Positions 9,684-56,383 of a DNA stretch of 64,000 nucleotides are shown here, piece by piece. Every line of letters begins with the position of its first letter. Within the stretch, counting starts at the first letter, position 1. The translations under genes and the position numbers were made by a program. Origin of the DNA: Candidatus Poribacteria bacterium (GTDB lineage: Bacteria; Poribacteria; WGA-4E; WGA-3G); contig OZ251518.1 in NCBI GenBank assembly GCA_965242965.1, forward strand, positions 512,001 through 576,000. The letters run 5' to 3'. The notes beneath the pieces were generated by a model that saw only the letters and a list, made by a program, of their open reading frames with translations, was not told where the DNA came from and did no database searches.

Positions 9684-9794
9684 TGAAGAGAGATGCTCGG
9701 CTTTGTCCGCGCACGCCTTAACGGCACCTCAATCTCAACACCATCCCTGAGCTAGACTGGAAAGTGGAAATCAAGCGTAAGTTTCGTAAGTAAC
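9684..9794 (+). pseudogene. Deleted remnant of a paralog of the 7082-7588 gene (3' end)
   Basis: ACGGCACCTCAATCTCAACACCATCCCTGAGCTAGA and CTGGAAAGTGGAAATCAAGCG match about 7447-7482 and 7552-7572. Confidence 0.75.
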
Positions 9795-9795
9795 T

Positions 9796-10448
9796 GAGGG
9801 TGTTTCATAAATCGCTCGACATCGCGGTGACATGCCCCGCGCTACGGTGAAAAATGGGGAATTGCCGATGGGCGGGCCCTCCCGATCTCAATACCAGCCG
9901 GGTAGGAGAGACCTCCCGGTCTCGATGTCTTCGGGTAGGAGAGACCTCCTGGTCCCGATGTTCCCGTAGCACGGGGGCCTGTCCCCCGCGATGGCTCAAG
10001 CACGTTTTTTTATCGTAGCGCGGGGGCCTGTCCCCCGCGATCGCTATCGTCAAGGTATGTTTTTAGGTCCTTTAGGACATGTCTATAGAAAAACGTGCTA
10101 GCCCGTTTTCAAGGTCTTTTAGGAACTTAATAAAAACACGCGCCGCAGGGAAAAGCATATTAAGGACCTAAAGGACCTTAGCATTCTTCGCGTCTACGCG
10201 GGCTATAGACATTCAGGTCCTACAGACCTGAAGAGAGCAAGAGACGTTTTTTGCGTAGCGCGAACGCTGGCGAGGGACAGGCCCTCGCCCTACGATGAAG
10301 GGGGGCTTTCTGCCGCCGCTGCCCCAGTAGGCGCGACGACAGGAAGAAGGCAGAAATCGAGACCAGGAGGTCTCTCCTACAGGGAAAACGGAATCATTCA
10401 AGGTGCCACGAAATCATTTTTGACAACAACGAGTTATGAAACATCCTC
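9796..10448. mobile_element. MITE-like element: 15-bp TIRs, 8-bp TSD, REP-like palindrome mosaic inside
   Basis: GAGGGTGTTTCATAA ... TTATGAAACATCCTC flanked by the direct repeat AAGTAACT (9788-9795 and 10449-10456). Confidence 0.88.
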
Positions 10449-10516
10449 AAGTAACTCACTCAGTCTGCCCGCGCCAATTTGGCGCGAGGCACACTTTTCT
10501 TAGAAGGAGCGTTGTC

Positions 10517-11620
10517 ATGCGAATGCACAAACGTTTGGCAAAGACAGCGGCTGTCGTTATCCTCTGGGTAGGTATTGCGGCAGTTGCCTCAGCAGACATT
10601 GTCTTCCAATCCGACCGGGATGGGCAGTTTAACATTTACGTGATGAAGGATGATGGCAGCCATGTCCGCCGGTTAACGGACGCTCCGTTTTATGATTATG
10701 CGCCTACCTGGTCTCCCGATGGTAGGCACATCGCTTTCGTGCGAGATATGCATTGGGGCGGTGCAGGAAAGGGGCAACAGGATGACATCTTCCTGATGAA
10801 TGCTGATGGCACGCAGCTGCGGAATCTCACGCAACATCCCAAGTATGATGGAGGTGTGACTTGGGCACCGGATGGAAAGCACCTTGCGTTTGCGAGTGGG
10901 CGGAGTGGAGAGACAGAGATACATATCATGGAACTCGCCACGGGGGCCGTGGAACAACTCACGGACAACTCGAAGGAGGGCGGCTTTTCCGCTGCGCCGA
11001 GTTGGTCGCCAGATGGGCACCACATCGCCTATGAACAGGTGATACCGGGAGGTGGGCGGCACATCTATCTCATGGATGCTGATGGCAAGAATGCTAGACC
11101 TTTGCTCAAGGGTCCTCAACCCCATCTCATCGGAGAACACTTGAGGCAGCGCGGTTTTCCTCGCTGGTCCCCAGATGGACAACATATTCTGTATGTTGAA
11201 TATGAACTGCGTTTTGTGCCGGGCAAAATTATCCGCATGGCGAACCGTCTGATTGTAGTTGGCAAAAACGGCAGACGGCCGAAGAACCTAGGGATTCCAA
11301 AAAACTGGGACATAGGAGATGCCTGTTGGACAGCGGATGGCAAGGCGATTCTTTTTCCCGCGGTGAAAAACGGATTAACGCAACCTGTCCGCGGCAAGTT
11401 TGACATTTACCGGTATCAGCTGACGAGTGGGCAGTTGACGAATCTCACCCAGCATCCCGGGGACGACTATTTTCAGGACTGGATCTCGCCCCACCGTTTG
11501 TCCGTTTCTGCTACTGGGAAATTAACCCTGCGATGGGCACAGATTAAGGTGAGGTATGCAGAGAGAGGTCCTTTTTCGCGCGTGCAGGCTACCCAAAGCG
11601 TCCAGTCTCCGCATCCCTAA
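10517..11620 (+). CDS. TolB-like beta-propeller (PD40 repeats), secreted, copy 2
   Basis: AAGGAG RBS, signal peptide ending ASA, WSPDG/WAPDG repeats, tail SVSATGKLTLRWAQIK. Confidence 0.9.
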   Translation: MRMHKRLAKTAAVVILWVGIAAVASADIVFQSDRDGQFNIYVMKDDGSHVRRLTDAPFYDYAPTWSPDGRHIAFVRDMHWGGAGKGQQDDIFLMNADGTQLRNLTQHPKYDGGVTWAPDGKHLAFASGRSGETEIHIMELATGAVEQLTDNSKEGGFSAAPSWSPDGHHIAYEQVIPGGGRHIYLMDADGKNARPLLKGPQPHLIGEHLRQRGFPRWSPDGQHILYVEYELRFVPGKIIRMANRLIVVGKNGRRPKNLGIPKNWDIGDACWTADGKAILFPAVKNGLTQPVRGKFDIYRYQLTSGQLTNLTQHPGDDYFQDWISPHRLSVSATGKLTLRWAQIKVRYAERGPFSRVQATQSVQSPHP

Positions 11621-11626
11621 GTTTAT

Positions 11627-11662
11627 GCCGCTGGCGTGGTTTTCCACGCCAGCGGCTTTTTT
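11627..11662 (+). terminator. Rho-independent terminator
   Basis: GCCGCTGGCGTGG-TTTT-CCACGCCAGCGGC followed by TTTTTT. Confidence 0.8.
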
Positions 11663-11889
11663 GTTACGGTTCACTTCTTTGCAAAAAAGTTGACGTTTCC
11701 GAAAAATGAGCACATATTAAGGGTAGCACCAGTAAAATTCGTGCGCGAACACCGCGATTTTGCAGATTTTTTGAGAAAAATGTGAAAAAAACGCAAAAAA
11801 AGTGCATTTTACCCTAAATTTTCGTCCTTTAATCCCTATACTATATATAAAGGACGAACTACCGTTATTTTCCGTGAGGAGGTTTCATC

Positions 11890-12711
11890 ATGAAAACGTC
11901 ACCTCGCCGCTATACCGCTCCGGATGCGTTAACGTGCTGTCTGCGGTGTGCCGAGACGCATGGCCCGTTATCACGGGAGGCGGAAGTGGCATTAGCGAAG
12001 CAAATGGAAGCCGGTGATGCCGGTGCACGCGATGGGCTGATCGAGGCGAACCTGCGCCTAGTCATTTCCATCGCGCGGAAATATCAGCACAACGGGATAC
12101 CCCTTGAAGACCTGGTTCAAGAGGGAAATATCGGGTTAATGAAGGCGGTGGATAAATTCGATTACCGGAAGGGGTGTAAACTCAGCACCTATGCGACACG
12201 CAGCATTGAAAAGGCAATTCAGGTGGCGGTTCGCCGCGATTCTGGGTTGACGCACCTACCTGGGCATCTCCGGCAGGGTGGTAAAGTCGCCGCCGCTTAC
12301 ACGAGGCTGTGTCAAGAATTGCAACGCGAACCGACGCACGCCGAAGTTGCGGCAGAAGTTGAGTTAACCGTTGCGCAAGTCGAAGAGATTCTGCTGTTCC
12401 GGGAAGGAACGATTTCGTTGGAGGCACCGGTTGGCGATGGAGACGACGACACCTCCGTTGGCGACTTCGTTGCAGATACGTCCGTGGACATAGAAGCAGA
12501 TCTGGTTCGTGCGGAAGTGCGGCAGCAGATTCGGGAGGCACTGTCCACGCTTACCGAGCGGCAGAAGACAATAGTGGTGTCAAAAGCGATTGAAGCGGTG
12601 AAAGGAAAAGAGATAGCCGAGCAATTGGATATCTCTTCCCCGCGTGTCACCCAAATCTACCATGAGGTGTTGGGGATATTAAAGGCGCGTTTGTCTCCGT
12701 TTCAGGCATGA
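11890..12711 (+). CDS. Sigma-70 family RNA polymerase sigma factor (alternative; no region 1.1)
   Basis: LIEANLRLVISIARKY, DLVQEGNIGLMKAVDKFDYRKG (region 2), REPT..EVA, SLEAPV (region 3), C-terminal HTH. Confidence 0.92.
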   Translation: MKTSPRRYTAPDALTCCLRCAETHGPLSREAEVALAKQMEAGDAGARDGLIEANLRLVISIARKYQHNGIPLEDLVQEGNIGLMKAVDKFDYRKGCKLSTYATRSIEKAIQVAVRRDSGLTHLPGHLRQGGKVAAAYTRLCQELQREPTHAEVAAEVELTVAQVEEILLFREGTISLEAPVGDGDDDTSVGDFVADTSVDIEADLVRAEVRQQIREALSTLTERQKTIVVSKAIEAVKGKEIAEQLDISSPRVTQIYHEVLGILKARLSPFQA

Positions 12712-12815
12712 GGCGAGTAGGCATTCCGGGCAGATTGAGTGCTTGTAAGCGCGGCGGCCCGCGCTGCATCCCTCACCGCGGCAGGCGAGGGACAGGTTCT
12801 CGCCTTACATTACCT

Positions 12816-13172
12816 GAGGGTGTTTCATATTTCGATGCCTTCCCCTTAGGAGAGACCTCCTGGTCTCAATGTTCCCGTAGCGCGGGGGCCTGTCCCCCGC
12901 GAGTGCCATCGTCCCGATGTGTGTTTCCCCTCTGTAGTTTGTGATTGCCTGATCACAAACGGGTCAGGATCTGGCGATCCTGACTTACAGGGCCTGGCAC
13001 GCGGACGCTGGCGAGGGAAACCCGCTCGGATGCGCGTGTGGCATCCGAGGGCCCTCGCCCTACGGTGAAGTGCCGTTTTTTCCGTAGCGCGGGGGCCTGT
13101 CCCCCGCGAGCGTTAGATTGCGCGGACGATATTGAGACCGGGAGGGTTCTCACAGATTTATGAAACACCCTC
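12816..13172. mobile_element. TIR-bounded REP mosaic element
   Basis: GAGGGTGTTTCATAT ... TTATGAAACACCCTC; internal GCGCGGGGGCCTGTCCCCCGCG and GTAGGAGAGACCTCC modules; no exact TSD. Confidence 0.8.
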
Positions 13173-13196
13173 CGTTAAGGCAGGAGGGAAGTTGTA

Positions 13197-14231: not shown

Positions 14232-14289
14232 CCGAGCAATGAAGACATGTGCGCGGGGCACTCCGCGCACATACCTGATACTGTCACCA

Positions 14290-14565
14290 CGGTAGGTGAG
14301 GGCCAGGTTCTCGCCTGCCGCAGAAGGGGGCCGTTTTTCGACGCAGAAACCCGCCCGATACCGTAGCGCGGGGGCCTGTCCCCCGCGAACGGCCGGTAGA
14401 CCACAGCATGGCGAGGGACAGGCCCCCGCCCTACGATGAAGGGAGACCGTTTTTCGACTCAGAAACCCTCACGATACCGTAGCGCGGGGGCCTGTCCCCC
14501 GCGAACGGCCGGTAGCCCACGGCATGGCGAGGGACAGGCCCTCGCCCTACGATGAAGGGGAGCCG
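14290..14565. repeat. REP-like palindrome mosaic (tandem BIME-like units, no TIR seen)
   Basis: Two tandem units of GTAGCGCGGGGGCCTGTCCCCCGCG ... GGCGAGGGACAGGCCC.CGCCCTAC. Confidence 0.8.
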
Positions 14566-14641
14566 TTTGGATATCCGAAATGGGGAATTCTCTGCCAGTG
14601 ATGAATTTATCACGAACGACTTTGAGTAAAAGGAGATAACC

Positions 14642-15493
14642 ATGAAGACCAGCCTGTCCTTATCCGGCGTTTTTTGCCTCGTTTGCTTTCTCAGTCTGTC
14701 ATTATTTGGCGGCTGTGCGGGCACGGAGGACAGCGAAACTGAAACGCCAACCGCAGACACAACGCCGAGTGTCATGCCCTTTGTGCCAGTAGATATGCAG
14801 GCAGTGGAAGAACTCCGCTTACGCGCTGAATTCATTCGCGAGCAACTCTGGCAGGGGAAAATGGGGGTGCCGCTGGACTGGGACAAGACAGCAGACCCGC
14901 TGTTACGTGCCGAATACGCGCGCTTCCTGCTCCGCAAGGAGAGAATTGCGATACCTTTCAACTGGGCTCAGACAGCCGACTTGTTCGTGCGCGCCGAATA
15001 TGAACGCGCGCTGCTCCTGAAGGAGTTCGGCGATATCCCGGCGGTTCACACGATTGCGGATTACGGCAAATTCGCGCGTCTGGCTGGCGCGTCTACGGTG
15101 ACGCGTGAGGAATTCATCGCCTTTTTTGCGGCGCAATACAAACTCTTCCCGAATGAAGCAAATCGGCGTGCCTTAGAAACAGCGAGAAAACCAGAACGCG
15201 TCGCGGGGCCAGAGCTGGAGAAGATGAGAATAGTAGCACCCGAGTTATGGGCCCAACACAAGCACGAGCAGCTTATCCGGCAGCATGGGGATAGCCCACA
15301 AGTTGACATCGTTGCCGATTTTATCCGAAAGGTGGAACTGCAACTCCCCAGAACTGATGAGGAATGCCATGCTTTTCTAAAGGCATTACGGCATCTCGAT
15401 CCGTTTGAGACTCAGCATCTGAAACGGTTTGGATATCCTTATGATGAAGGCTATGCTGCGCTTGAAGCCCGAGCCCAACTCCATCTCATGTGA
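14642..15493 (+). CDS. Hypothetical lipoprotein with two 'FGDIP'-type repeats; the frame continues past TGA to 15604
   Basis: AAGGAG RBS; lipobox-like FGGC; LLKEFGDIPAVHT and LIRQHGDSPQVDI repeats. Confidence 0.78.
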   Translation: MKTSLSLSGVFCLVCFLSLSLFGGCAGTEDSETETPTADTTPSVMPFVPVDMQAVEELRLRAEFIREQLWQGKMGVPLDWDKTADPLLRAEYARFLLRKERIAIPFNWAQTADLFVRAEYERALLLKEFGDIPAVHTIADYGKFARLAGASTVTREEFIAFFAAQYKLFPNEANRRALETARKPERVAGPELEKMRIVAPELWAQHKHEQLIRQHGDSPQVDIVADFIRKVELQLPRTDEECHAFLKALRHLDPFETQHLKRFGYPYDEGYAALEARAQLHLM

Positions 15494-15734
15494 CATGAAC
15501 TAGCGTGGCGCGCCCTAGAAAAATACCGAGAAGCGAAAGCGAAGGGGATTCCATTTCGTCTCATTGACTGGGAGGACGGTGGCCCTGTTCATATCATTGA
15601 TTGATAGGGATGAAGGGGCGTAAGCATTAGCGCGGAGGAAATCTATCCCGTGGGCCGAAGTCAAATCGGAACGTTAACTGAAATTGACTGCGGACGAAAA
15701 GACGTGTGCGCGGGGCGGCCCGCGCACATGCTTT

Positions 15735-16559: not shown

Positions 16560-16577
16560 GGTTTTGATTCTCCTTCT

Positions 16578-17456: not shown

Positions 17457-17471
17457 GCATTATGCCTCCGG

Positions 17472-18455: not shown

Positions 18456-18470
18456 TTTTTATTCCCTCCA

Positions 18471-19301: not shown

Positions 19302-19347
19302 TGCTGAACCTCCGCTTGTAGGATAGTCCTCCCTGTCCCGATAATGT

Positions 19348-20424: not shown

Positions 20425-20467
20425 CTGTTTTGCGTTCCTTGCGGCAATTGTGGTATCATTTGGGTGT

Positions 20468-20496
20468 ATTCTAGCATGGATGCGATTTTGTGTCAA
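20468..20496 (-). promoter_or_regulatory. Sigma-70 promoter for the M42/AKR/PhyH run
   Basis: Minus strand TTGACA-17 bp-TAGAAT. Confidence 0.7.
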
Positions 20497-20518
20497 TTTT
20501 TTTGCGGGGAAAAAAGAA

Positions 20519-20547
20519 TTGACAAATGACGTAAAATAAGGTATAAT
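20519..20547 (+). promoter_or_regulatory. Perfect consensus sigma-70 promoter
   Basis: TTGACA (20519-24), 17 bp, TATAAT (20542-47); a TIR element starts 5 nt later. Confidence 0.8.
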
Positions 20548-20552
20548 AAATT

Positions 20553-20809
20553 GAGGGTGTTTCATAATTCGCTCAATGTCGCGGGGGAAACCCGCTCGCA
20601 TGCGCGTGTGGCATCCGAGCCCTCCGTGCCACGATAAAAAAACGCTTCCCCTTCACGTAGGGCGAGGGCCTGTCCCTCGCCATGTGTCTTGCTGTTAGAC
20701 TGCCTCACCCCTGTAGGTCAGGATCGCCTGATCCTGACCTGTTCGGGAGCGGGCGCTCCCGAACTACAGAGGTGGGCCCGATGCCTTTCGGTGTTTATGA
20801 AACACCCTC
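20553..20809. mobile_element. TIR-bounded REP mosaic element
   Basis: GAGGGTGTTTCATAA ... TTATGAAACACCCTC, a perfect 15-bp inverted repeat. Confidence 0.85.
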
Positions 20810-21319: not shown

Positions 21320-23130
21320 GTGAAAACCGACAAAACCCCGAAAACGACACCCGCTCCAAACGAGGAGCGGCTCCGACAACTCAAGCAACTCTTCCCTGAA
21401 TGCCTCACCGAAGGCGAAGTGGACATGGAGAAACTTGCGAATATACTGCAGGTTTGTGAAGGGGGGGGGTAAACCAAAAGGATAGGTATCACTTCAATTG
21501 GGCAGGCAAGCGCGATGCCATCCGCCTACTCAATGTCCCCACCGAGGCTACTCTTATCCCATGCCGAGAGGAGTCGCTCCATTTTGACAGCACCTCAAAC
21601 CTCTTCATTGAGGGTGATAACCTAGAGGTGCTGAAACTCCTCTACAAACCCTATTTCGGACGCGTGAAGGCGATTTACATCGATCCGCCTTACAACACCG
21701 GCAACGACTTCGTCTATCCCGATAACTACGCGAAGCCGTTGGATACCTATCTCCAATTGTCGGGTCAAATCGATGCCGCTGGCAATCTGCAGACGAGCAA
21801 TCCGGAGAGTGGTGGCCGTTACCACTCGGCATGGTTATCGATGATGTATCCACGCCTTTTCCTTGCGCGGCAGTTGCTCACGGATGATGGCCTCATCTTC
21901 GTTAGTATCGATGACCGCGAGGTGCATGATCTTCGCTTCATGTTAAATGAGATTTTTGGCGAGGAAAATTTTATGCAACAACTCGTATGGCAACGACATG
22001 CTGGCGGCCGTAGTGATGTCAAGCATTTTGCAACAGACCACGAGTATATCCTCACGTATGCTAAAAATCTCCAGTCCATCGGTAAGTTGAGGCGGCCGTT
22101 AACCGAGGAGGAGAAAGCGGACTACACGGAAAAAGACGAGTATTATGGGACTCTCGGGCCCTATAAAACTCGCGGATTTCAAGCACAGCGTCAACATGGT
22201 GGGCATCTCTACGAGATCGAATGTCCCGACGGATCAGTGGTTTTGAAGCATTGGCGATGGCAGCAATCGCGTTTTCTGCAAGCGAAACAGGAAAACAAAA
22301 TCGCTTTCAAGCAGAACCAAAACGGGACATGGCGGGTTGAATATAAACTCTACCAGAATGAGGCTGCAAGGGTTCTGCGGAGTTTGTTGACAGATGTGGA
22401 ACGAAATAGCCATGCCCGCGCGCAGCTTCGGCGAATTTTCAAAGCAGATGATATTTTTGATTATCCAAAGCCGGTGGGTTTAATCAAACACCTCCTGCAG
22501 TTCAGCACTGACGCAGATTCCATCGTTTTGGATTTCTTCGCGGGCTCCTGCCCAACGGCGCAGGCGGTTCTAGAACTCAATCAGGAAGATGGCGGCAACC
22601 GACAGTTTATCGTCGTGCAACTCCCTGAACTGACACCGGAAAAATCGGAGGCGCGCAAGGCAGGATTTGAGACGATTGCCGAGATTGGCAAAGAACGGAT
22701 CCGCCGCGTGTGTTTGCAGGAAAACACGGGTTTTCGCGTCTTCAAACTTGCCGAGTCCAACTATCGGACAGAAGACGATGTCCGCACCGAGGATGTGCAA
22801 ACTTACATCGCGCAGTTGGAAAGCACTATCGATGCGCTTCGGGACGGATGGCGCGAAGAGGATGTCCTTTATGAAGTTGCGCTTAAAGAGGGATATCCAC
22901 TGGACAGCGAGATTGAACGCGTTACGGGCCTGGAGACGAATACGGTTTTTCAGATTGCCGCGCCCGATGGTTCGCAGATGTTCCACGTCTGTTTGGATGC
23001 GGAACTTGCGCCGAGAGATATAGAGCGTCTAGGGTTGTCAAAGGATTCCGTGTTTATCTGCCGGGATGTTGCGTTAACGGATACGCTTGCAGCGAACTTG
23101 GCATTGCAGTGTCGCCTTAAGACTCTCTGA
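21320..23130 (+). pseudogene. mod: Type III R-M methyltransferase Mod, frameshifted at a G9 tract (21461-21469)
   Basis: 5' part ..RLRQLKQLFPECLTEGEVD..KL stops at 21470. The other frame continues RYHFNWAGK..NLFIEGDNLEVLKLL..IYIDPPY..DFFAGS. Confidence 0.88.
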
Positions 23131-23199
23131 TACCAAACCGTGATGGGCAAACTCAGGTGCTCTTGCCCACGGGTGTCGCCAAAATGGGCCGTTTTAATC

Positions 23200-23726
23200 C
23201 CGACATGGCGAGGGACAGGCCCTCGCCCTACGGTGAAGGGAACTGTTTTTTACCGTAGCGCGGGGGCCTGTCCCCCGCGATCTCTATCGTCAAGAGTCGC
23301 GTTTTAGGTCCTTTAGGTCCTACATGTCTATAGCAACACGTGTCGGCCCGTTGTCAAGGTCCTTTAGGTCCTTAATAAGAAACGCGCGGCCCCGGCAAAA
23401 TCTATTAAGGTCCTACAGACCTTAGGGTTCTTCGCGGGCGCGCATGCTATAGACATTAAGGTCCTACGGACCTAAGAGACGTTTTTTTCGTAGTGCGGGG
23501 GCCTGTCCCCCGCGACGTTGTGCGATTTATGAAACACCCTCAATTAGATAAGGCGTGCCTGATCTTGACCCGTTCGGGATCGGGCGATCCCGAACTACAG
23601 AGTTATGAAACACCCTCGTTTTAATGCTGATTCAGACATCCGACATGGCGAGGGACAGGCACTCGCACTACGATACAACGAGGAAAGGCGAGGGACAGGC
23701 CCTCGCCCTACGATACAACGAGGAAA
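23200..23726. repeat. REP mosaic between mod and res, with two right-hand TIR copies
   Basis: TTATGAAACACCCTC at 23527-23541 and 23603-23617; GGTCCTTTAGG.CC module; 40-bp tandem duplication ending in the res RBS. Confidence 0.8.
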
Positions 23727-23727
23727 A

Positions 23728-26419: not shown

Positions 26420-27167
26420 CGGAACGGGAAACGGCTTTGGTTGGCGTGCGTTTTTCGCGCAGATCGGGCGATCGCGGGGGAAAAACGTGCCGCTGACCGT
26501 AGGGCGAGGGCCTGTCCCTCGCCGTGCCTCGATCGGGAGGGAAATGGCCTGGGTCTGCGTGCAGTTTTTGCGCAGGTCGGGCGATCGCGGGGGACAGGCC
26601 CCCGCGCTACGGGCCCGGAAGGGTTCTCCTCAAGGTCCGTAGGACCTTAATGTCTATAGCACGCGCCGATGCAATATCCCTCAAGGTCCTTTAGGACCTT
26701 AATGTTTTCTGCCGCAGATTAAGGACCTAAAGGACTTTAGGGCTTTTTTTTGGTCGGGTTTCTATAGCTATGCAGGACCTAAAGGACCTGAAGAGACGTT
26801 TTTTTACGGGTGCGCTCGCGGGGGACAGGCCCCCGCGCTACGGTAGATGAGGAGGCCTCGCTATTGACCCGTTCGGGATCAGGCACTCCCGAACTACAGT
26901 CTCCGGGCCATATAATCTTGCTAATTCGTGATAATCGTGTAAATCCTGCTCATCTCTGAGGCACGCGGGCGAACGCGAGGGCCTGTCTCCCGCGCCGGGG
27001 GGTTGGGTTCTGTGTGGCAAAAAAAATTCTGCTAGCAAAGAAAACAGCAATGTGATATACTGGTTCATGTCAGGAAACTTCATGGGGTATCTCCTAAAAT
27101 GTTTTTAGTTCTTCATGCTAGGATCCCCCATCTCCTGACATTTTACAACCATTTATGAAACACCCTC
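26420..27167. repeat. REP mosaic ending in a right-hand TIR
   Basis: Several GGGACAGGCCC palindromes, a reversed GGTCC..GGACC module, TTATGAAACACCCTC at 27153-27167. Confidence 0.75.
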
Positions 27168-34317: not shown

Positions 34318-34743
34318 GAGGGTGTTTCATAAATCGTCCAACGTCGCGGGGGCCTGTCCCCCGCGCTACGATGAAAAAAACGCTTCCACTTCACGTAGCG
34401 AGGGCCCTCGCATGCCACACGCGCATGCGAGCGGGTTCCCCTCGCCATCGTTTTGCTGGCAGCCCGCCTCACCCCTGTAGGTCAGGATCGCCCGATCCAG
34501 ACCCGTTTGTGATCAGGCGATCACAAACTACAGATGGGGAAACACACATCGTGACGATGGAGTTCGCGCAATCCAACGATCGCGGGGGACAGGCCCCCGC
34601 GCTACGGGCGGAGAAAAACCCTACGGGAGAATCGAGATCAGGAGGTCTCTCCTACCCGAAGAAATCGAGACCCGAGGTCTCTTCTACCAGCAATAGCGCG
34701 GGGGCCTGCCATCGCGACGTTGAGCGATTTATGAAACATCCTC
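34318..34743. mobile_element. TIR-bounded REP mosaic element
   Basis: GAGGGTGTTTCATAA ... TTATGAAACATCCTC; flanks are similar but not identical (AAGTTTATT / CAGTTTAAT). Confidence 0.83.
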
Positions 34744-37845: not shown

Positions 37846-38019
37846 CCGTGATTAGTTGAGGGTGTTTGATAACTCCGTTTCGGTAGTTATCCCGCACCCC
37901 TGTAGGTCAGGATCGCCAGATCCTGACCCGTTCGGGAGCGGGTGCTCCCGAACTACAGAGGTGGACCCAATGCGCCCACCTCGCTTTTCTAGTTGAGTTT
38001 TTCAGTGAGGATAGTAGGC

Positions 38020-38316
38020 ATGAACTATAGAGACATTATCACCATTGAACCGGACAAGCGGAGCGGGCAGCCGTGCATTCGCGGCATGCGCATCACCGTT
38101 TACGATGTCCTTGAATATCTCGCTGCGGGGATGACGATAGCGGAAGTCCTTGACGATTTTCCGTATTTAACCGAGACAGACATTCGGGCGTGTCTCGCTT
38201 ACGCAGCGGACAGAGAGAAAGCACAGATGGTAGTTTACGCGAATGAAACTCCTCTTCGATCAAAACCTACGAAAAATGGGGCATCGCCGGTAGGACAGAC
38301 CTCCTTGTCTCAATAG
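38020..38316 (+). CDS. DUF433 family antitoxin
   Basis: ITIEPDKRSGQPCIRGMRITVYDVLEYLAAG..EVLDDFPYLTETDIRACLAYA. Confidence 0.92.
   Translation: MNYRDIITIEPDKRSGQPCIRGMRITVYDVLEYLAAGMTIAEVLDDFPYLTETDIRACLAYAADREKAQMVVYANETPLRSKPTKNGASPVGQTSLSQ
38243..38293 (+). pseudogene. 5' stub of a DUF5615 (PIN-like) toxin
   Basis: ATG AAA CTC CTC TTC GAT CAA AAC CTA = MKLLFDQNL, then repeat sequence and a stop. Confidence 0.65.
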
Positions 38317-38829
38317 GCTCCTCGGTAGGAGAGACCTCCCGGTCTCGATGTTCCCGTAGCGCGGGGGCCTTCGGATGCCATCCGCGCATCCGAGAGGGTT
38401 TCACCCGCAATCTCCATCGTCAAGTTATGTTTTTAGGTCCTTTAGGACCTACATGTCTATAGCAGCATGTGTCGTTCCGTTTTCAAGGGCCTTTAGGTCC
38501 TTAATAAAAACACGCGCGGCCCTGGCAAAAACTATTAAGGACCTAAAGGACCTTAGGGTTCTTCACTGGCGAGCGTGCTATAGACATTAAGGTCCTACGG
38601 ACCTAAGAGACGTTTTTTCATCGTAGTGCGGGGGCCCTCGGATGCCATATGCGCATGCGAGCGGGTTTCCCCCGTGAGCGTTGGATTACGCGGACGATGG
38701 CGAGGGACAGGCCCTCGCCCTACGATGAAGGGGGCTTTCTGCCGCCGCGGCCCCGGTAGGCGCGCCGCCCTATTGCATCGAGACCGGAAGGGCTCTCCTA
38801 CGGGGATTTATGAAACCCCCAGAATTAAT

Positions 38830-40615: not shown

Positions 40616-41168
40616 GTAGGAGAGCCCTCCTGGTCTCGATGCAATAGAACGGCGCACCCACCCGGGCAGCGGCGACAGAAAGCCCCCCTCCATCGTAGGG
40701 CGAGGGCCTGTCCCTCGCCATGCCTGGGGCACACGTGCGCGCATCCCCTCTGTAGGGCAGGATCGCCTGATCCTGCCTATTCAAGAGGGTGCTCCGGAAC
40801 GCAGGTCTCCTCAAGGTCCGTAGGACCTTAATGTCTATAGGACGCGCGGATGCAGTAGCCCTCAAGGTCCTTTAGGACCTTAATGTTCCCTGCTGCAGAT
40901 TAAGGACCTAAAGGACCTTAGTGTCTTTTTTTCGTCGGGAGGTTCTATAGACATGCAGGACCTAAAGGACCTGAAGAACGGGTCAGGAGCAGGTGCTCCT
41001 GCCCTATAGGGGGGAGGAGGCCTGGCAGCCAAATGCATGGCGAGGGACAGGCCCTCGCCCTACGTAAAGGGGATGCGTTTTTTTCATCGTAGCGCGGGGG
41101 CCTCGGATGCCATACGCGCATCCGAGCGGGTTTCCCCCGCGCCGTTGAGCGATTTATGAAACACCCTC
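40616..41168. repeat. REP mosaic ending in a right-hand TIR
   Basis: Same palindrome modules; TTATGAAACACCCTC at 41154-41168. Confidence 0.8.
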
Positions 41169-45924: not shown

Positions 45925-45946
45925 TTCAAAATTTCCTTATTAGAAT

Positions 45947-46594
45947 GAGGGTGTTTCATAACTCGTTAATGTCCGATAGACCGCAGCACGGCGAGGGACA
46001 GGCCCTCGCCCTACGTGAAGGGTGGGGCGTTTTTCGTCCAAGAAACCCTCCCGTTACCGTAGCGCGGGGGCCTGTCCCCCGCGAACGTTCGATAGACCGC
46101 AGCATGGCGAGGGACAGGCCCTCGCCCTACGGTGGGGTGGCGTTTTTTATCGTAGCGCGGGGGCCTGTCCCCCGCGATCGTTCGGTAGACCGCAGCATGG
46201 CGAGGGACAGGCCCCCGCCCTACGGTGGAAGGAGGGTGTTTTAGGTGACGTATGCCGCAGCTTCATACAGAGATTTTCACTTCCTCATATGCGTAAGCAG
46301 CGCGCTCCCGCGCGTCTTGCGCTTCAAACTCCAATGCCTCGCGAAGCGTGATTTGGAGCGTCTCCAGCAATGCCTCTCGTGTCCGTTCTTGGCACGTCAC
46401 GCCCGATACTTCGCGGATCCACCCGATCCACCACTCACCGCGATGTTGAATCTGAGCCGTATAGGTTTGTGACATTTCAAATCTCCTTTCCATCGCTACA
46501 ATTTTCGGTTAACGGTATAATCCCTGCCGGTCTAGCAGCATCGAGACCAGGAGGTCTCTCCTACCGGGGAGGCATCGATTTATGAAACACCCTC
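45947..46594. mobile_element. TIR-bounded REP mosaic enclosing a HicB-like gene
   Basis: GAGGGTGTTTCATAA ... TTATGAAACACCCTC perfect TIRs; no exact TSD. Confidence 0.75.
46263..46475 (-). CDS. HicB-family antitoxin (short form)
   Basis: YTAQI...GEWWIGWIREVSGVTCQERTREALLETL...LREALE; AAGGAG RBS. Confidence 0.85.
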   Translation of the reverse strand: MSQTYTAQIQHRGEWWIGWIREVSGVTCQERTREALLETLQITLREALEFEAQDARERAAYAYEEVKISV

Positions 46595-46599
46595 AGTTA

Positions 46600-46628
46600 A
46601 TTATAACAATTTTCGAGGCGTTTGTCAA
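46600..46628 (-). promoter_or_regulatory. Perfect consensus sigma-70 promoter firing into the TIR / hicB / R-M genes
   Basis: Minus strand TTGACA-17-TATAAT with TGn; the TIR begins 5 nt downstream. Confidence 0.8.
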
Positions 46629-47114
46629 GAAAAAATGCAATCCTTGACATTTTTCGGTTATCGGTATAATCCCCGCAACACCTCAAAAAAAACGCGGAAA
46701 CGTCTTACGCACGCACCCCGGATTACAAATCTGAATTCCAGGGACTTTCAAGCCAATCAGCGAACATGCCATCTCCACGCGGTGAGCTTCGTAAGTCAAC
46801 CTCAGGTCCGCCTGCCCGAGAGAATAGCCTCCCGCTGTAGTTTGCGAGTGCTTGCCGGTCTGGCAGCATCAAGACCAGGAGGTCTCTCCTACCGGGAAGC
46901 CATCGAGACCAGGAGGTCTCTCCTACCGGGGAGGCATCGATTTATGAAACACCCTATAATTCATCCCAAAATTGAATCACGCTGCAATTTTTTTCGCGCC
47001 AAAAATACGAAAATATGATAAAATAGTGATGATTGACGCAGAAACTACACCCGGTAGGTGTGTTTTGAAAGCGCGCCTATCCGGACAACAATCATGAGGA
47101 GAAGGAGGGTTTTG

Positions 47115-49319: not shown

Positions 49320-49470
49320 GAGAGGCCTTAGGACGGACGCAGCACGAACCTCGTATGCGCGGTTTCAAACCGCGCACGCTGGGAAAGCGCGCAGCCAACG
49401 CGCGTATACCGGCGAAAACTTGTAATCGCGGCTCTCTATAGCCGCCCACGAAAAAATAGGAGAGATTAAC

Positions 49471-50544: not shown

Positions 50545-50606
50545 TTAGAAGACGAACGCTTGTAGGCGCGGTTTGAGACTGCGCCTACCGGTTTATAGGA
50601 GAACGC

Positions 50607-51815: not shown

Positions 51816-51819
51816 TCTG

Positions 51820-52347
51820 GCGGTGAAAAATGGGGACTTGCCGGGTATGAGAGACCTCCCCGGTCTCGATTCCTTCTAGGTAGGAGAGACCTCGGGCACC
51901 GGTGCGACATGGCACGAAGGCTGGCCCGAGTCTCGATGCCTTCTAGGTAGGAGAGACCTCCCGGTCTCGATGCAATAGGGCGGCGCGCCTACCGGGGCTG
52001 CTGCGGCAGAAGGCCCCCTTCATCGTATGGCATCCGAGAAGGCCCGCGCTACGATAAAAAAACGGTTCTTAGGTCCGTAGGACCTTAATGTCTATAGCAC
52101 TCGGCGATGCGAAGAGTTCTAAGGTCCTTTAGGTCCTTAATGTGTTTTGCCATGCGGTGCGTTTTGTTATTAAGGACCTAAAGGACCTTGACAACAGGAC
52201 GACACGTGTATCTATAGACATGTAGGTCCTAAAGGACCTAAAACGCATCGTGACGATGGACAACGCGGGGGCCTGTCCCCCGCGCTACGGGAACATCGAG
52301 ACCCGGAGGTCTCTCCTACCGAACACATCGAAATATGAAACACCCTC
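51820..52347. repeat. REP mosaic ending in a right-hand TIR
   Basis: GTAGGAGAGACCTCC modules, a reversed GGTCC module, ATATGAAACACCCTC at 52333-52347. Confidence 0.8.
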
Positions 52348-52359
52348 AGGTAAACAATC

Positions 52360-53205: not shown

Positions 53206-53329
53206 ACGTAGCGAAATTGTAAGGGCGGATGTCTCTATCCGCCCATTCTTTTTCAATGCGGCTCGCGCGCATTTAGGGCTAACGGTAATTTGTCGGGCGG
53301 AAACCATAGGAAGCCGCCGTTGCAAATAA

Positions 53330-55348
53330 TTACCGATCTGTTCTCACTATCTTCTCCCAATTCCATAGGAGAATCGTGCCATCCCCGCCGCCACTCGCCA
53401 GCGTGTGCCCATCCGGCGAAAATTCCAAATTTTTCACCCCATAGCAATGCGCTTTAATGGTAGACTGAACGGTTCGAGTGCCGCTATCTATTATAGACAA
53501 GATGCCAATGCCATCACCGCTGACGAGGACTGTATTGTCGGGCGAGAACGCCATGGCTTCAATGCTGTAGTCTGGAAGGCCCGATACGTGCCCGACTAGG
53601 TTATGTGTCTGCACATCCCAGAGATAAACCCGTCCCTCCTCATCTCCACTAGCGAGCAGTTTGCTATTCGGGGAAAACGCGAGGGCAATCTTTTTATTCC
53701 AATGTTCCCTACGCGTCTCACCGTGGTCCGCGAAAGTGGCGAGTTTGTCCCGTTTGTGGATATCCCACAAATGGAGAGTCTCGTCCCTGTCCGCACTAGC
53801 GAGCAACTTCCCATCGGGTGAGAGCACCAATGCGCTGATAGTTTTGTCATGTCCTTTGAGCACGCCCAACTGGCTGCCGGTGTCCGCGTCCCACAGCCGA
53901 ATCGTCAGGTCTGCGCTGCCAGTTGCCAGTACTGTGCTATCGGCGGAGAAGGCGAGAGCGGTAACCTCCTGCGTATGGCGTTTGAGCACGATGCGCTCGG
54001 TTCCCGTTCGCAGATTCCAGAGCCAGACGATATGCTCGTTTCCTGACATACCGTTCCCAGCACTCGCCAGGGTCTTGCCATCGGGTGAAAAGGCATAGAC
54101 GTTTGCAATACCTGTCTGAAGAGTGAAGTTGGTAAGCGGAGAGGCTGTGTCGGCATCCCATATCTGCACAGTGTTTCCGCGGTATCCCCATCCGCTAGCA
54201 GCCACGGTTGTGCTATCGGCGGAGAAGTCAAACTCAAGTCCCCACGGTTCGTGCCCACGGAGGGAGAGCATGGAGAGTTCGTGATTTCCTCGGGTCGGAT
54301 CCCACGTGCACACTATACCATTTCCATCTCCGCTTGCTAACAGGGCACCGTCTGGTGAAAATGCCAACGTGAGTATGGACACGGGATTTTCCGAAGGGGT
54401 TATGAATTTGGAGAGAAACCGCCCATCTTCAACATTCCACAACCGAATGATACCGCCCTGGTCGCCGATGGCCACGGTGGACCCGTCCGGTGAGAACACA
54501 AGTGCTTCAATCCAAGCTGCCTCGCGTTTAACCGTCGGAAGTTGCCCGCGCGTGCGCGGCTCGGCAAGTTCAAGTTGGACGAGCGTCGCGTGGCGTTCGC
54601 CTGTTTCAGCGTTCCACAAACGCGCAACGCCTTCCCTATCCGCACTCGCTAGTTGAGTCCCATCCGGTGAGAAAGCCAACGTTTCGACGGGATCCTGATG
54701 TCCATCAAGCACCAACAGTTGTTCCCCACTGGCGACATCCCACAATCGGATGGCGGTATCTTGCCCGCCACTAGCAATGCGGCGGCTGTCAGGTGAAAAA
54801 ATAACCGCTTCGACCGGGGCTGTTTCGTGTCCGTAAAGCGTCTTAATCGGTGTGGCATGCACCATGCTCGGCGATTGGTGTTCCGCAATTTCCCACAAAT
54901 GAATCATGCCGTAGTAATCTCCTGCCGCGAGTTTCGTCCTGTCTGGCGAAAATGCAAGCGACCAGGGATGCCCGTGAATGTCTTCTATTGGGATGAGCGC
55001 GAGTTGTTGGCCTGTCTCGGTATCCCATATTCGGATTGTTCTGTCGTTTCCCGTGCTAGCGAGCATCCGGCCGTCTTGCGAGAACGCTAAGTGGCGAGAT
55101 TCTTCGGTATGGCCGGTGAACAACCTGATTTCGTCGCCGGTGCGCGCGTCGTAAAGCCAAACGCCTATCGTGGTTGACGCGGCGAGGCGGTTTCCGTCCG
55201 GCGAAAACTGTAGCCGGTTGATATCTCCCTTTCCGATGCGGTGTTTCGCGCCTTCGGGCAATCCCCAAGTGGTATAATCTTCTTGGGCGAACGCGTTGGG
55301 CAATAGCCACAGCGCGATGAGTATGAGCGTGCAGTTGAGGTATTTCAT
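53330..55348 (-). CDS. Secreted WD40-repeat protein
   Basis: Signal peptide ending AFA; many GH...V..LAFSPDG..LASG..D.TIRLWD repeats. Confidence 0.93.
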   Translation of the reverse strand: MKYLNCTLILIALWLLPNAFAQEDYTTWGLPEGAKHRIGKGDINRLQFSPDGNRLAASTTIGVWLYDARTGDEIRLFTGHTEESRHLAFSQDGRMLASTGNDRTIRIWDTETGQQLALIPIEDIHGHPWSLAFSPDRTKLAAGDYYGMIHLWEIAEHQSPSMVHATPIKTLYGHETAPVEAVIFSPDSRRIASGGQDTAIRLWDVASGEQLLVLDGHQDPVETLAFSPDGTQLASADREGVARLWNAETGERHATLVQLELAEPRTRGQLPTVKREAAWIEALVFSPDGSTVAIGDQGGIIRLWNVEDGRFLSKFITPSENPVSILTLAFSPDGALLASGDGNGIVCTWDPTRGNHELSMLSLRGHEPWGLEFDFSADSTTVAASGWGYRGNTVQIWDADTASPLTNFTLQTGIANVYAFSPDGKTLASAGNGMSGNEHIVWLWNLRTGTERIVLKRHTQEVTALAFSADSTVLATGSADLTIRLWDADTGSQLGVLKGHDKTISALVLSPDGKLLASADRDETLHLWDIHKRDKLATFADHGETRREHWNKKIALAFSPNSKLLASGDEEGRVYLWDVQTHNLVGHVSGLPDYSIEAMAFSPDNTVLVSGDGIGILSIIDSGTRTVQSTIKAHCYGVKNLEFSPDGHTLASGGGDGTILLWNWEKIVRTDR

Positions 55349-55962
55349 CGTTTTGTCTCCTTCACGGCTTCCGTTGCAGCTTTAAACACCGCATCAATCG
55401 CGCCGAAAAGTGCCGGCAGATCCTGCAACAGGAAGGACATTGTGGATTCAGTAAATGTATCGCCGATAAGTCGCCCAAATTGCCACCGCTCGCCATCGGT
55501 GACGATGCCGTAAACCGGGAAACCTGCATCAGCATTGATTTTTTGTGCGGCTACCAATTCAGCGAGGCATTGTCCCCAGCCCATCTCAAAATCGTTCTTT
55601 TTCGCCTCAACCATCATGATTAGCGGACTTCCGACAACGCGAGGCCCCAATTCCGATCTCGTTGAGACGAAGTAATCAGGCTTGACGCTCAAAGTGTCAT
55701 TGTAAGCGATGGATTTTTCCATCCAAAGCACGTAGTTTTCGGCGTATGCCTTGTAGACTTCCCGTAAAATCGGGTAAATCAGTGCCTGACACTTTGCTGC
55801 CTCGGAGGCAAGAAAATCAATGTACTGCCGTGTAAATGCGAGTTCTTGCAGGAACTGCTCCGATGGGATTAAGGGTTCACCGCCGACGAAGTCTTGTCGC
55901 CTGTGTTTAATCCCGAATTCTGCTTGGACTTCCGGAATCTCCTTGAAATCGCTGAATGCCAT
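55345..55962 (-). CDS. Hypothetical PD-(D/E)xK-like protein, distant paralog of the 29452-31388 trio
   Basis: PDY..VEAKK, GWGQCLAELVAAQKIN, VYGIVTDGERWQF. Confidence 0.78.
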   Translation of the reverse strand: MAFSDFKEIPEVQAEFGIKHRRQDFVGGEPLIPSEQFLQELAFTRQYIDFLASEAAKCQALIYPILREVYKAYAENYVLWMEKSIAYNDTLSVKPDYFVSTRSELGPRVVGSPLIMMVEAKKNDFEMGWGQCLAELVAAQKINADAGFPVYGIVTDGERWQFGRLIGDTFTESTMSFLLQDLPALFGAIDAVFKAATEAVKETKR

Positions 55963-55996
55963 GGGTTTATCCCTGAGTCTATTGACTCAGTTAATC

Positions 55997-56372
55997 GAGG
56001 GGGGTTTCATATCTCGCTCAACGTAGCGGTGACAGGCCCCCGCTACGATGAAAAAACGCCGCCTCTTTACGTAGGGCGAGGGCCCTCGCATGCGCGTATG
56101 GAAACCTCCGAGGGCCCCCGCGCTACGGTAAAAAAAACAGTCCGCTTCACCGTAGGGCGAGGGCCTGTCCCTCGCCATGCATTTGGCTGACAGACTTCCT
56201 CACCCCTGTAGGTCAGGATCGCCTGATCCTGACCTGTTCGGGATCAGGCGATCCCGAACTACAGAGGTGGGCCCGATGCCTTACGGTAGGAGGGACATCC
56301 TTGTCCCGATACGGTGTGCATCGAGACCAGGAGGTCTCGCCTACCGAACGCATCGAAATATGAAATACCCTC
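55997..56372. mobile_element. MITE-like element with TIRs and a perfect 8-bp TSD
   Basis: GAGGGGGGTTTCATAT ... ATATGAAATACCCTC flanked by AGTTAATC (55989-55996 and 56373-56380). Confidence 0.88.
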
Positions 56373-56383
56373 AGTTAATCTCC

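Follow-up and report, generated by a model that had tools for sequence, protein, structure and literature searches.

The TIR-bounded elements of this Candidatus Poribacteria DNA, a 64-kb stretch (the window) that we analyzed together with the 5.7-Mb genome it belongs to, are, as judged from their sequences, a true MITE family and an orphan one, the parent transposase gene surviving only in relatives. Taken as a whole, they are probably IS-derived MITEs with REP interiors that were diversified mostly by recombination after insertion. The TIR motif GAGGGTGTTTCATAA is present 18 times in the window at two or fewer mismatches, against 0.07 copies expected, and the same threshold yields 989 ends in the entire genome, 396 of which are exact. 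Conservation in the sequence logo of the TIR spans about 21 bp, and the logo of the target sites is a palindromic A.TTAA.T. For the analysis of target duplications, adjacent inverted ends (+/-) less than 3 kb apart were paired; this gave 304 pairs, 290 of which delimit a shell of at most 1 kb. Exact 8-bp TSDs flank 63 of the 304 pairs (0.6 expected from shuffled pairing), exact 9-bp TSDs flank 26, and 142 pairs possess a TSD with at most one mismatch at 8 or 9 bp, compared to about 5 expected. The enrichment over shuffled pairing is approximately 30- to 100-fold, which bears out genome-wide the supposition of a previous sequence-only reading that TSDs occur above chance. No TSD was found for 162 of the adjacent pairs, and about 550 ends are unpaired. 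A flank-exchange test for recombination between MITEs, in which non-partner 8-mers matched by chance at 48% of the verified and 38% of the unverified ends, has no power on these low-complexity targets.

A full-length IS with the ends of the MITEs occurs in intact form in four further Poribacteria genomes, where each copy is about 1104 bp long, deviates from the MITE TIR by 0-2 mismatches and is flanked by a perfect 8-bp TSD (AATTATAT, AGTGAATT, ACCTAAAT, and ATATAACT). Its product is a 332-aa DDE transposase that scores above the cut-offs of PF13612 (DDE_Tnp_1_3; 40.6 bits, cut-off 27) and PF01609 (31 bits, cut-off 23). The best NCBIfam match of this protein is IS982; it does not reach the cut-off of the IS982 equivalog NF033520 (59.7 versus 130 bits), no ISKra4 or Mutator NCBIfam match was obtained at E ≤ 0.001, and nearly all of its 918 homologues are unnamed. 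We classify it, from these profile matches, as an IS982-like enzyme of an unnamed, Poribacteria-centred clade. In the genome studied here, the transposase gene is represented by a decayed 130-bp remnant and frame fragments only, and the 94.66%-complete, two-contig assembly contains no profile matches to PF13612, PF00872, PF00665, or PF01610 and none to PF01609 above the cut-off. As candidates for an autonomous IS we inspected the 16 TIR pairs that span 0.9-3 kb; these enclose ordinary genes (for an ankyrin/dockerin protein, a helicase, CTP synthase, and others) and no transposase genes; multi-copy sequences of 600 bp or more recovered by self-megablast proved to be paralogous genes for surface proteins and restriction methylases and not ISs. 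The full IS with the same TIR sought on the basis of the earlier reading was hence recovered from four other Poribacteria genomes, while this genome holds its remnant. A full IS in relatives that couples this TIR with an 8-bp TSD and a DDE transposase gene argues for the proposed DDE mobilization of the shells, and the shell interiors do not derive from the body of this IS, in agreement with the view that they are not its deletion derivatives.

TIR ends with at most one mismatch number 807 in this genome, 8 in the related genome G001, 1 in its congener G002, and 0-7 in 28 other relatives. The ends lie close to genes, at a median distance of 61 bp from gene starts and 20 bp from gene ends, and one of them follows a consensus promoter by 5 bp, as would be expected if the 15-bp motif recurred near genes as a protein-binding or regulatory site and the repeats flanking it were due to chance. 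Such a site would not, however, account for the enrichment of TSDs, for a full IS carrying the same ends, or for 807 copies here versus a single one in the congener; moreover, the ends show no promoter or gene-start bias, 386 of them facing gene starts and 382 facing gene ends. Since the TSD statistics and the cognate IS already refute this explanation, we regard it as exceedingly improbable.

Within the window, we found all seven bracketed elements and all six unpaired right ends that the sequence-only reading had described, and both of its exact 8-bp TSDs were confirmed (AAGTAACT for the first and AGTTAATC for the last element; Table 1). The degenerate TIR ends at 38808-38822 and 55997-56012, the latter being the left TIR of its element, were seen at 3-4 mismatches.

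Table 1. Features of the window, with positions counted from its first nucleotide.
Feature	Position	Length	Strand	Remarks
Paralogous empty site	7583..7590		+	one AAATAACT between tandem paralogous genes
MITE copy 1	9796..10448	653 bp		exact 8-bp TSD AAGTAACT at 9788-9795 and 10449-10456
MITE copy 2	12816..13172	357 bp		matching TSD absent
Putative promoter TTGACA-17-TATAAT	20519..20547		+	read from sequence; conserved in G002
Canonical-type MITE	20553..20809	257 bp		interior of loop-hairpin R2, R2, and R3/R4 doublet; TSD absent
R2/R1 REP doublet	23196..23280			example outside any shell
Solo right end	23527..23541		-	exact TIR
Solo right end	23603..23617		-	flank GTTTTAAT at 23618-23625
Solo right end	27153..27167		-	exact TIR; upstream of malate/lactate dehydrogenase gene
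MITE copy	34318..34743	426 bp		bordered by AGTTTATT and (C)AGTTTAAT
Long MITE copy	37858..38822	965 bp		right TIR degenerate, 3 mismatches
Solo right end	41154..41168		-	exact TIR; A-type subterminal sequence
MITE copy	45947..46594	648 bp		alternating R2/R1 array; no TSD
Solo right end	46942..46956		-	subterminal 55 bp equal to those of the right end of the 45947-46594 MITE
Solo right end	52333..52347		-	1 mismatch; R5-type subterminal sequence
MITE copy	55997..56372	376 bp		exact 8-bp TSD AGTTAATC at 55989-55996 and 56373-56380

The proposed empty site near 7583 was likewise recovered: a single, uninterrupted AAATAACT aligns there to both flanks of MITE copy 1, which indicates that positions 7583-7590 are the empty-site paralogue of this insertion. 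Among Logan contigs of four runs, those of X8 and X11 span the left junction as well as the right TIR of MITE copy 1, those of X1 and X3 end before its repeat, and the joints listed for these runs include no empty-site joint for this element. In the sister genome G002, the locus orthologous to MITE copy 1 is rearranged among paralogous PD40-repeat genes and yields no clear empty site. Orthologous empty sites, as predicted by the earlier reading, are present in G002 for two other elements of this genome (1555160 and 1544031). The 20553-20809 MITE begins 5 bp downstream of the consensus promoter, its junction lying directly after TATAATAAATT; in a comparison of these two genomes, G002 carries a segment of about 790 bp, including an ORF, at the corresponding position, and the absence of this segment here suggests a deletion or replacement associated with the MITE. 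The spacer that holds the 23527-23541 end is REP- and repeat-filled and measures 577 bp, compared to 57 bp in G002. GTTTTAAT, the flank of the neighboring solo end, recurs at 23191-23198, where it adjoins an R2 REP in place of a left TIR. The flanks of the 34318-34743 MITE (AGTTTATT and (C)AGTTTAAT) are possibly a decayed TSD with a 1-nt offset, and those of the long copy at 37858-38822 (GATTAGTT versus AATTAATT) differ by two mismatches. The identity of the subterminal 55 bp indicates that the solo end at 46942-46956 is a partial duplication of the 45947-46594 MITE.

The interiors of these elements are built from REP units in various combinations: R5, R1, and R2 together with a TAGGTCC modular repeat (about 10056-10235) in MITE copy 1; R5, R1, an R3-like doublet, a loop-hairpin R2, and R1 in MITE copy 2; and R2, an R3/R4 doublet, and R5 in the element at 55997-56372. 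The loop hairpin of MITE copy 2, 31 bp in length, is nested at 13019-13049 within the R2 unit at 13010-13063. Such REPs also occur outside the elements, and 27 of the 48 strict REP hairpins of the window are located outside TIR-bounded shells. Genome-wide, we counted 6017 GTAG hairpins, 854 (14%) of which lie inside 290 shells and 86% outside, while a reversed-pattern control gave 0 matches. Their density is 7.3 per kb in shells versus 4.3 per kb in other intergenic DNA (about 1.7-fold) and 0.33 per kb in coding DNA. R1 alone is present in 2452 copies in this genome, 428 in G001, 360 in G002, and 0-1 in other genera. Two REP types alternate in orientation with short spacers to form BIME-like clusters, with spacers of 20-25 bp in R2/R1 arrays and 3-4 bp in R3/R4 doublets, and a 31-bp hairpin is nested within the loops of 635 REPs. 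The GTAG palindromes listed in the sequence-only reading are thus present and highly repeated; they are genuine REPs and are not specific to the shells.

Their assignment to the RAYT-type REPs is supported as well. This genome contains one RAYT gene (NF047646; 120.6 bits, cut-off 80), whose translation has visible HLH and YxxNP motifs and which is bordered on both sides by R4-type REP arrays. The anticipated RAYT flanked by the palindromes was therefore found for R3/R4, the only REP types with a cognate RAYT in this genome; for R1, R2, or R5 this genome contains none, and G002 possesses a RAYT with R5 on its flanks. RAYT may also introduce REPs into shells.

Grouping of the 304 elements by architecture gave 217 clusters, with 203 singletons among them, and the interiors are diverse and not copies of each other, as the earlier reading had maintained. 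In the canonical form, a TIR is followed by an R1/R2 doublet, an R3/R4 doublet, a B-end, and the second TIR. Differences between interiors consist of the gain or loss of REP units, the 31-bp hairpin in REP loops, and other repeats; homology breakpoints cluster at REP boundaries. By their ends, the elements can be grouped into A, B, and three R5-types. Since these classes are distinct, part of the interior diversity reflects separate subfamilies and not change after insertion. Such classes, the occurrence of A+non-A pairings, and 14 architectures found in two or more copies at different sites are all compatible with many independent MITE births, in which pairs of IS ends captured different REP-rich pieces of intergenic DNA and the interiors remained fixed after insertion. 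A search for a REP-free core MITE fits this as well; none was found, and even the smallest copy, of 129 bp, is made of REP fragments. We nevertheless consider this explanation rather unlikely, because 43 of the 63 perfect-TSD elements have singleton architectures, discrete REP-unit indels set the variants apart from the canonical form, and a single insertion shared between two species, the sole case examined, differs in its interior: it is 479 bp long in this genome but 863 bp long in G001, and its modules are not the same. The latter case matches the forecast of the sequence-only reading that interiors would be altered at orthologous insertions.

That reading had also proposed two nested mobilization chemistries, with the cargo of a DDE-mobilized shell rebuilt by REP-type (HUH) recombination. 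In a strictly coupled version, RAYT would insert or excise REP or REPIN units in the DDE shell, e.g., beside GTAG, and the shell would serve as a preferred landing pad. The higher REP density of the shells agrees with this, as does the observation that the fraction located in shells is largest (24-27%) for R3/R4, the sole types for which this genome has a RAYT; furthermore, the junctions of loop-hairpin and R5 insertions are sharp, overlapping by 0-5 bp, and enzymes of the IS200/IS605 type insert beside a fixed tetranucleotide. On the other hand, the most abundant cargo (R1, R2, and R5) lacks a cognate RAYT in this genome, 86% of the REPs are found outside shells, and most interior gains possess junction overlaps of 9-12 bp that lie inside REPs, as is typical of homologous exchange. 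Such overlaps point to homologous or unequal recombination and not to HUH cut-and-paste, and we judge a coupling of the two chemistries to be quite improbable. The co-residence of a DDE shell and REPs is upheld, whereas a dedicated coupling is at odds with the many REPs outside shells, and most of the overlaps speak against a rebuilding of the cargo by HUH-type recombination. Since homologous recombination fits most of the remodeling at least as well as RAYT does, the nested chemistries are supported only in part.

In the history that we favor, the shells are non-autonomous derivatives of the 1.1-kb Poribacteria IS with its predicted IS982-like, PF13612-type transposase. The enzyme would recognize ends of about 18 bp, GAGGGTG(T/G)TTCATAAATC, and cut the palindromic A.TTAA.T with an 8-bp, more rarely a 9-bp, stagger to generate the target duplication. 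The family grew to about 1000 ends in this lineage, and the transposase gene was lost afterwards. Interiors never came from the IS body but consisted of GTAG-headed REP hairpins and doublets from the start, these REPs being part of a distinct population, 6000 copies or more, which fills intergenic DNA at large and is associated with HUH/Y1 RAYT transposases. Most interior diversity would have arisen after insertion by unequal or homologous recombination and slippage between REPs, with units gained, lost, or swapped, and additionally by the insertion of small hairpins into REP loops and the capture of other repeats; some remodeled variants may have been re-amplified by the DDE enzyme. Single cases suggest that recombination between MITE copies or REPs can remove TSDs, make solo ends, and delete neighboring DNA. 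More speculatively, and in our view doubtful, the shell might act as a RAYT-independent REP vehicle, in which R1, R2, and R5 were packaged between DDE ends, constantly rearranged into novel cargo by recombination between REPs, and re-amplified by a transposase acting in trans, e.g., from transient IS copies or co-resident Poribacteria strains, and so drove the seven-fold REP expansion in this lineage. If this were true, the two mobile systems, though unrelated, would jointly make up a single, evolving composite replicator.

DDE MITEs and REPs are each already known; their nesting and density in this sponge-symbiont genome are unusual. They provide a statistically strong case in which a DDE MITE and HUH-type REPs, selfish DNAs of unrelated kinds, are physically nested in one element; the parent IS is identified, and direct comparison shows cargo that changes within an unchanged shell. 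With about 1000 MITE ends, 6000 or more REPs, and no DDE transposase detected, this genome offers a natural system for studying the persistence of non-autonomous elements and the spread of REPs without their own RAYT. Through deletions, lost TSDs, and insertions beside promoters, such repeats remodel genomes in uncultured symbionts of sponges, and in practical terms they account for the fragmentation of short-read Poribacteria MAGs.

Bacterial MITEs derived from ISs include RUP, NEMIS/Correia, and Nezha (PMC3733652). As far as they are portrayed in the cited text, the elements studied here resemble them in being short, non-coding, intergenic, and multi-copy, with TIRs of 15-30 bp and TSDs (PMC3733652), and presumably also in their mobilization in trans by the DDE transposase of an IS that shares their TIRs. 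They differ in that the parent IS contributes no more than about 18 bp and the whole interior is REP/REPIN DNA of another system, in that about 1000 ends reside in a genome no longer encoding the transposase, and in unusually heterogeneous interiors, with 217 architectures among 304 elements. The parent IS is similar to IS982/PF13612 ISs in its length of about 1.1 kb and its single DDE ORF with a PF13612 score above the cut-off. Members of the IS982 family possess short TIRs and TSDs in the range of 3-9 bp (ISfinder), within which the Poribacteria IS falls; it departs from this family in the 59.7 bits of its transposase, compared to an equivalog cut-off of 130. IS copies can lack TSDs through recombination or rearrangement (PMC11708052), and the intact ends with non-matching flanks observed here are like those that this source describes; here, however, the copies are MITEs, and recombination can also pass through the REP cargo.

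With REP/REPIN-RAYT systems and BIMEs (Nunvar, 2010, PMC2817692; Bertels and Rainey, 2011, PMC3116915; Di Nocera, 2013, PMC3733652), to the extent that the cited passages depict them, the present REPs share G+C-rich hairpins headed by GTAG, an arrangement in inverted doublets and in arrays of alternating units, a RAYT present in one copy and flanked by its own REPs, and genus-specific, vertically inherited REP families. Relative to the systems in these passages, they stand apart by their extreme density (at least 6000 hairpins in 5.7 Mb), by five or more REP types alongside one RAYT, by a 31-bp hairpin in 635 REP loops, and by forming the structural interior of a DDE MITE. The nearest printed precedent that we found is that of Anabaena variabilis, in which long palindromes contain inserted GTAG-15 dimers (PMC3733652, section 7). 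There, too, a conserved inverted-repeat shell regularly surrounds the REP dimers; the mention is a passing one and includes no TSD, parent IS, or interior diversity (PMC3733652), whereas the Poribacteria shell is a DDE MITE with a cognate IS.

The 15-bp terminal inverted repeat (TIR) that bounds the MITE-like shells of this region is well defined. GAGGGTGTTTCATAA and its complement match 18 times in the window at up to two mismatches, compared to 0.07 matches expected from shuffled sequences, and motif matches were found at every TIR position listed by the sequence-only reading. Its two exact 8-bp target-site duplications (TSDs) are likewise present (AAGTAACT around element 1 at 9796-10448; AGTTAATC around the copy at 55997-56372). 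The empty site suspected near 7583 was borne out: the junction between tandem paralogous genes at 7583-7590 represents a paralogous empty site, since it carries a single unbroken AAATAACT and can be aligned to both flanks of element 1. According to crude gene calls, the window elements occupy the gaps that separate ordinary genes, whose products are PD40 propeller proteins, a type III restriction subunit, malate dehydrogenase, an Eco57I-type methylase, a phosphoglucomutase-like protein, a BNR protein, ThuA and PhyH. The seven shells hold 21 of the 48 REPs of the window.

Throughout the source genome (G000; 5.70 Mb in two contigs, 54% G+C), 989 copies of the motif are present (396 exact, 411 one-mismatch and 182 two-mismatch), and it is absent at this stringency (≤2 mismatches) from the second contig (38 kb). 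A logo over all ends revealed about 21 conserved bp on the inner side (GAGGGTGTTTCATAAaTCGcT) and, in the outer flank, a target-site preference for the palindromic 8-mer A.TTAA.T. Adjacent plus and minus ends less than 3 kb apart form 304 pairs, mostly of 200-700 bp, and exact TSDs of 8 bp (63 pairs), 9 bp (26), 10-12 bp (7) and 7 bp (3) were found among them. TSDs are commoner than chance genome-wide: 142 of the 304 pairs possess one with at most one mismatch at 8 or 9 bp, where shuffled pairing would yield about 5; no TSD is present in the remaining 162. Among the 791 ends outside the 8-bp TSD pairs, 129 have their own flank exactly repeated within 1.5 kb inward (10.8 expected). Many of these belong to the 9-bp class, and for a few a REP stands in place of the TIR at the partner end.

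The search for a full insertion sequence (IS) sharing this TIR was successful in other Poribacteria genomes, not in G000. At up to one mismatch, a pattern search that included 30 relatives counted 807 ends in G000, compared to 0-8 in each of the others. In one relative (G006), the matches are piled up at contig ends, as expected of a collapsed multi-copy IS; in another (G016), the motif flanks a 1101-bp element with the ends GAGGGTGGTGCATAAAT and GAGGGTGGTTCATAAAT, a perfect 8-bp TSD (AATTATAT) and one ORF of 332 aa. The deduced protein scores 40.6 bits against PF13612 (cut-off 27) and 31 bits against PF01609 (cut-off 23); its best NCBIfam model, IS982, is sub-threshold (59.7 vs a cut-off of 130). 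Scanning species-representative genomes, we recovered 17 loci, Poribacteria-titled throughout. The full-length copies, four in number, measure about 1104 bp and are each flanked by a perfect 8-bp TSD (AATTATAT, AGTGAATT, ACCTAAAT, ATATAACT), and the right end of one is identical to the G000 TIR. The transposase family comprises 918 homologues (E≤1e-5), nearly all unnamed and about 332 aa long, many of them on ~1.1-kb contigs. A cognate IS with a DDE transposase (PF13612), matching ends and 8-bp TSDs thus supports the proposal of a DDE-mobilised shell.

In G000, the transposase protein has a single match (E 9.8e-5), a fragment of 63 aa that is interrupted by stops and adjoins an exact TIR. The IS DNA matches only the TIR ends and this locus, which corresponds to IS positions 1-130 (71% identity). 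The interiors are not deletion derivatives of the IS, an outcome that would have refuted the sequence-only reading. No transposase was found inside any of the 16 long TIR pairs of G000, and the profile search of this genome gave no PF13612, PF00872, PF00665 or PF01610 match and nothing above cut-off for PF01609. Long intragenomic repeats were ruled out as ISs, the G000 repeats being paralogous genes. The transposase is present in six of the 30 relatives, none of them congeneric. Since relatives possess the IS and G000 has nothing of it beyond the remnant, the shells are an orphan MITE family, DDE-type with a cognate IS.

The palindromes inside the shells are REPs and belong to a distinct, far more numerous population, which has one REP-associated tyrosine transposase (RAYT). 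A strict hairpin finder (GTAG head, stem of at least 7; long-loop variants are missed) reported 6017 hairpins on the main contig of G000, among them about 1837 of type R1 (GTAGCGCGGGGGCC), about 1771 of R2 (GTAGGGCGAGGGCC), 502 R1/R2 hybrids, 581 of R3, 608 of R4 and 156 of R5. Only 854 (14%) lie in shells, namely within the 290 of ≤1 kb that make up 2.07% of the genome; by crude ORF calls, shells carry 7.3 REPs per kb, the rest of the intergenic DNA 4.3/kb and coding DNA 0.33/kb. Two Y1-transposase matches are present in G000. The first is a broken IS605-type tnpA next to tnpB; the second, a 154-aa RAYT (NF047646, 120.6 bits; cut-off 80), has R4-type REP arrays on either side and is the palindrome-flanked RAYT gene that had been sought. 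Of 31 genomes, 20 have a RAYT homologue, and that of the congeneric G002 is only 56% identical and has R5-type REPs as flanks. With one R4-flanked RAYT in G000 and the R5-flanked one in G002, G000 is therefore without a cognate RAYT for R1, R2 and R5. R1 counts are 2452 in G000, 428 in the congeneric G001 (an underestimate because this assembly is a fragmented MAG), 360 in G002 and 0-1 in 28 other relatives. A large methylase-type ORF outside the window is open through both of its REP-encoded peptide repeats; these REPs were thus inserted in coding sequence with the frame intact.

The interiors differ by REP-unit indels. Clustered at 85% reciprocal coverage, the 304 elements fall into 217 architectures: one with 53 copies (227-304 bp), 13 with 2-11 copies and 203 singletons, the latter accounting for 43 of the 63 perfect-TSD elements. 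In the canonical element, two REP doublets are flanked by asymmetric ends (TIR, 12 bp, inverted R1, 25 bp, R2, 31 bp, R3, 3 bp, inverted R4, ~66 bp, TIR); no REP-free core MITE was found among the G000 elements. Subterminal sequences define the end classes A (332), B (144) and three R5-types (127, 80 and 55). Almost always an A end is paired with a non-A end, and several subfamilies therefore have one end in common. Four kinds of indel distinguish the copies. The first is a 31-bp hairpin within the R1 or R2 loop (stem CTCGGATGC/GCATCCGAG), present in 635 copies genome-wide and practically never outside REP loops. In 465 copies the stem is perfectly paired, in one of three co-varying versions; this hairpin could represent a REP subfamily or else a tiny element targeting REP loops. 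The second consists of gains of REPs or REP doublets whose junctions lie within REPs and overlap by 9-12 bp, as unequal or homologous exchange would give. The third is a modular TAGGTCC repeat that has an R1 copy on each side, and the fourth comprises units of R5 type whose junctions are sharp. The points where homology to the canonical A side ends fall preferentially on REP boundaries, at about positions 30-40, 100-110 and 190-220.

Comparison with G002, where the TIR occurs once genome-wide and which is syntenic with the window over 1-26420, provided empty as well as filled sites. At G000 positions 1555160 and 1544031, both occupied by perfect-TSD elements, the orthologous G002 sites are MITE-free, and that of 1555160 is clean. 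In G000, the 577 bp of the interval 23111-23688 consist of REPs and other repeats together with two solo ends; the G002 counterpart is 57 bp long and has two REPs. The element at 20553 is without a TSD; its left junction immediately follows a conserved TTGACA-17-TATAAT promoter, and about 790 bp including an ORF at the equivalent G002 position are missing from G000. A deletion or replacement, which may have gone in either direction, accompanies this element. One insertion is common to G000 and G001: both of its flanks are orthologous (92% and 83% identical), and its target, A(G/C)TTAATT, is shared. It measures 479 bp in G000 vs 863 bp in G001, and its REP modules and subterminal sequence differ between the two. 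This single case directly documents a change of interior within a persisting insertion, the kind of alteration that the sequence-only reading had proposed to look for at orthologous loci.

Coordinates of ends, repeats and neighboring loci (window positions unless the contig, G000:C1, or a locus is named)
Feature	Position	Description
Degenerate TIR ends	38808-38822; 55997-56012	Detected at 3-4 mismatches
31-bp loop hairpin	13019-13049; ~20585-20620	First copy inside R2 (13010-13063)
TAGGTCC/GGACCTA modular palindromic repeat	~10056-10235; ~23290-23480	Between R1 copies, in- and outside shells
Repeat with near-consensus promoter (TTGACATTTTTCGG…TATAAT/TATTAT)	46630-46672; L046 ~1240-1330, ~2280-2330	Recurs beside MITE ends and on both flanks of the G002 RAYT locus
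Segment missing from syntenic G002 locus	14232-15692	1.46 kb (72 bp in G002); overlapping ORFs of 283 aa (+) and 176 aa (-); no Pfam match, no TIR
Insertion shared with G001, G000 copy	G000:C1:3012237-3012755	Copy of right-flank sequence in place of the outer 11 bp of the left TIR; flanked by a direct repeat of 20 bp (A[G/C]TTAATTCTCG[G/A]TTGATTC), not by an 8-bp TSD
Large methylase-type ORF	G000:C1 ~773700-776800	Two in-frame REP-encoded peptide repeats (SSTVARGPVPRDRS, twice)
IS605-type element (L005)	G000:C1:3123891-3127127	Intact 408-aa TnpB-like ORF; Y1 tnpA cut by two TGA codons; only other transposase-like gene seen in G000
Secreted lamin-tail-domain-like proteins	G000:C1 ~362700-364800; ~1120100-1122200; ~20 others	Large paralogous families; C-terminal halves ~1.8-2.4 kb, 85-90% identical

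Collectively, the data show staggered 8/9-bp DDE insertion at A.TTAA.T, a MITE burst specific to the G000 lineage, and the subsequent loss of the transposase gene from G000. Remodelling probably proceeded mostly via recombination or slippage between REPs. Some variants appear to have been re-mobilised, because 14 architectures are multi-copy; solo ends and TSD-less pairs would stem from MITE-MITE or REP-REP recombination and deletion. Of the two nested chemistries originally proposed, the DDE shell with its cognate IS and a genuine REP/RAYT system both stand, but the cargo seems to have been rebuilt mostly by these recombinational routes.

Both MITEs and REP/RAYT systems are long-established textbook knowledge. 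This analysis contributes the parent IS, the orphan status of the family, the 8/9-bp TSD statistics, the tally of REPs in and out of shells, the loop-hairpin count and the orthologous comparisons. We found nothing relevant on Poribacteria REPs, and nothing on Poribacteria MITEs with their transposase, in full-text searches; the papers retrieved on MITEs, REPs, RAYTs and TSDs hold no description of REP-filled MITEs in their titles or abstracts, and a term search of one review (PMC3184786) gave no relevant passage on chimeric, mosaic, nested, hybrid or composite elements. The nearest printed precedent that we found for REP-filled shells is a single sentence on Anabaena variabilis, in which GTAG-15 dimers are enclosed in long palindromes (PMC3733652, section 7).
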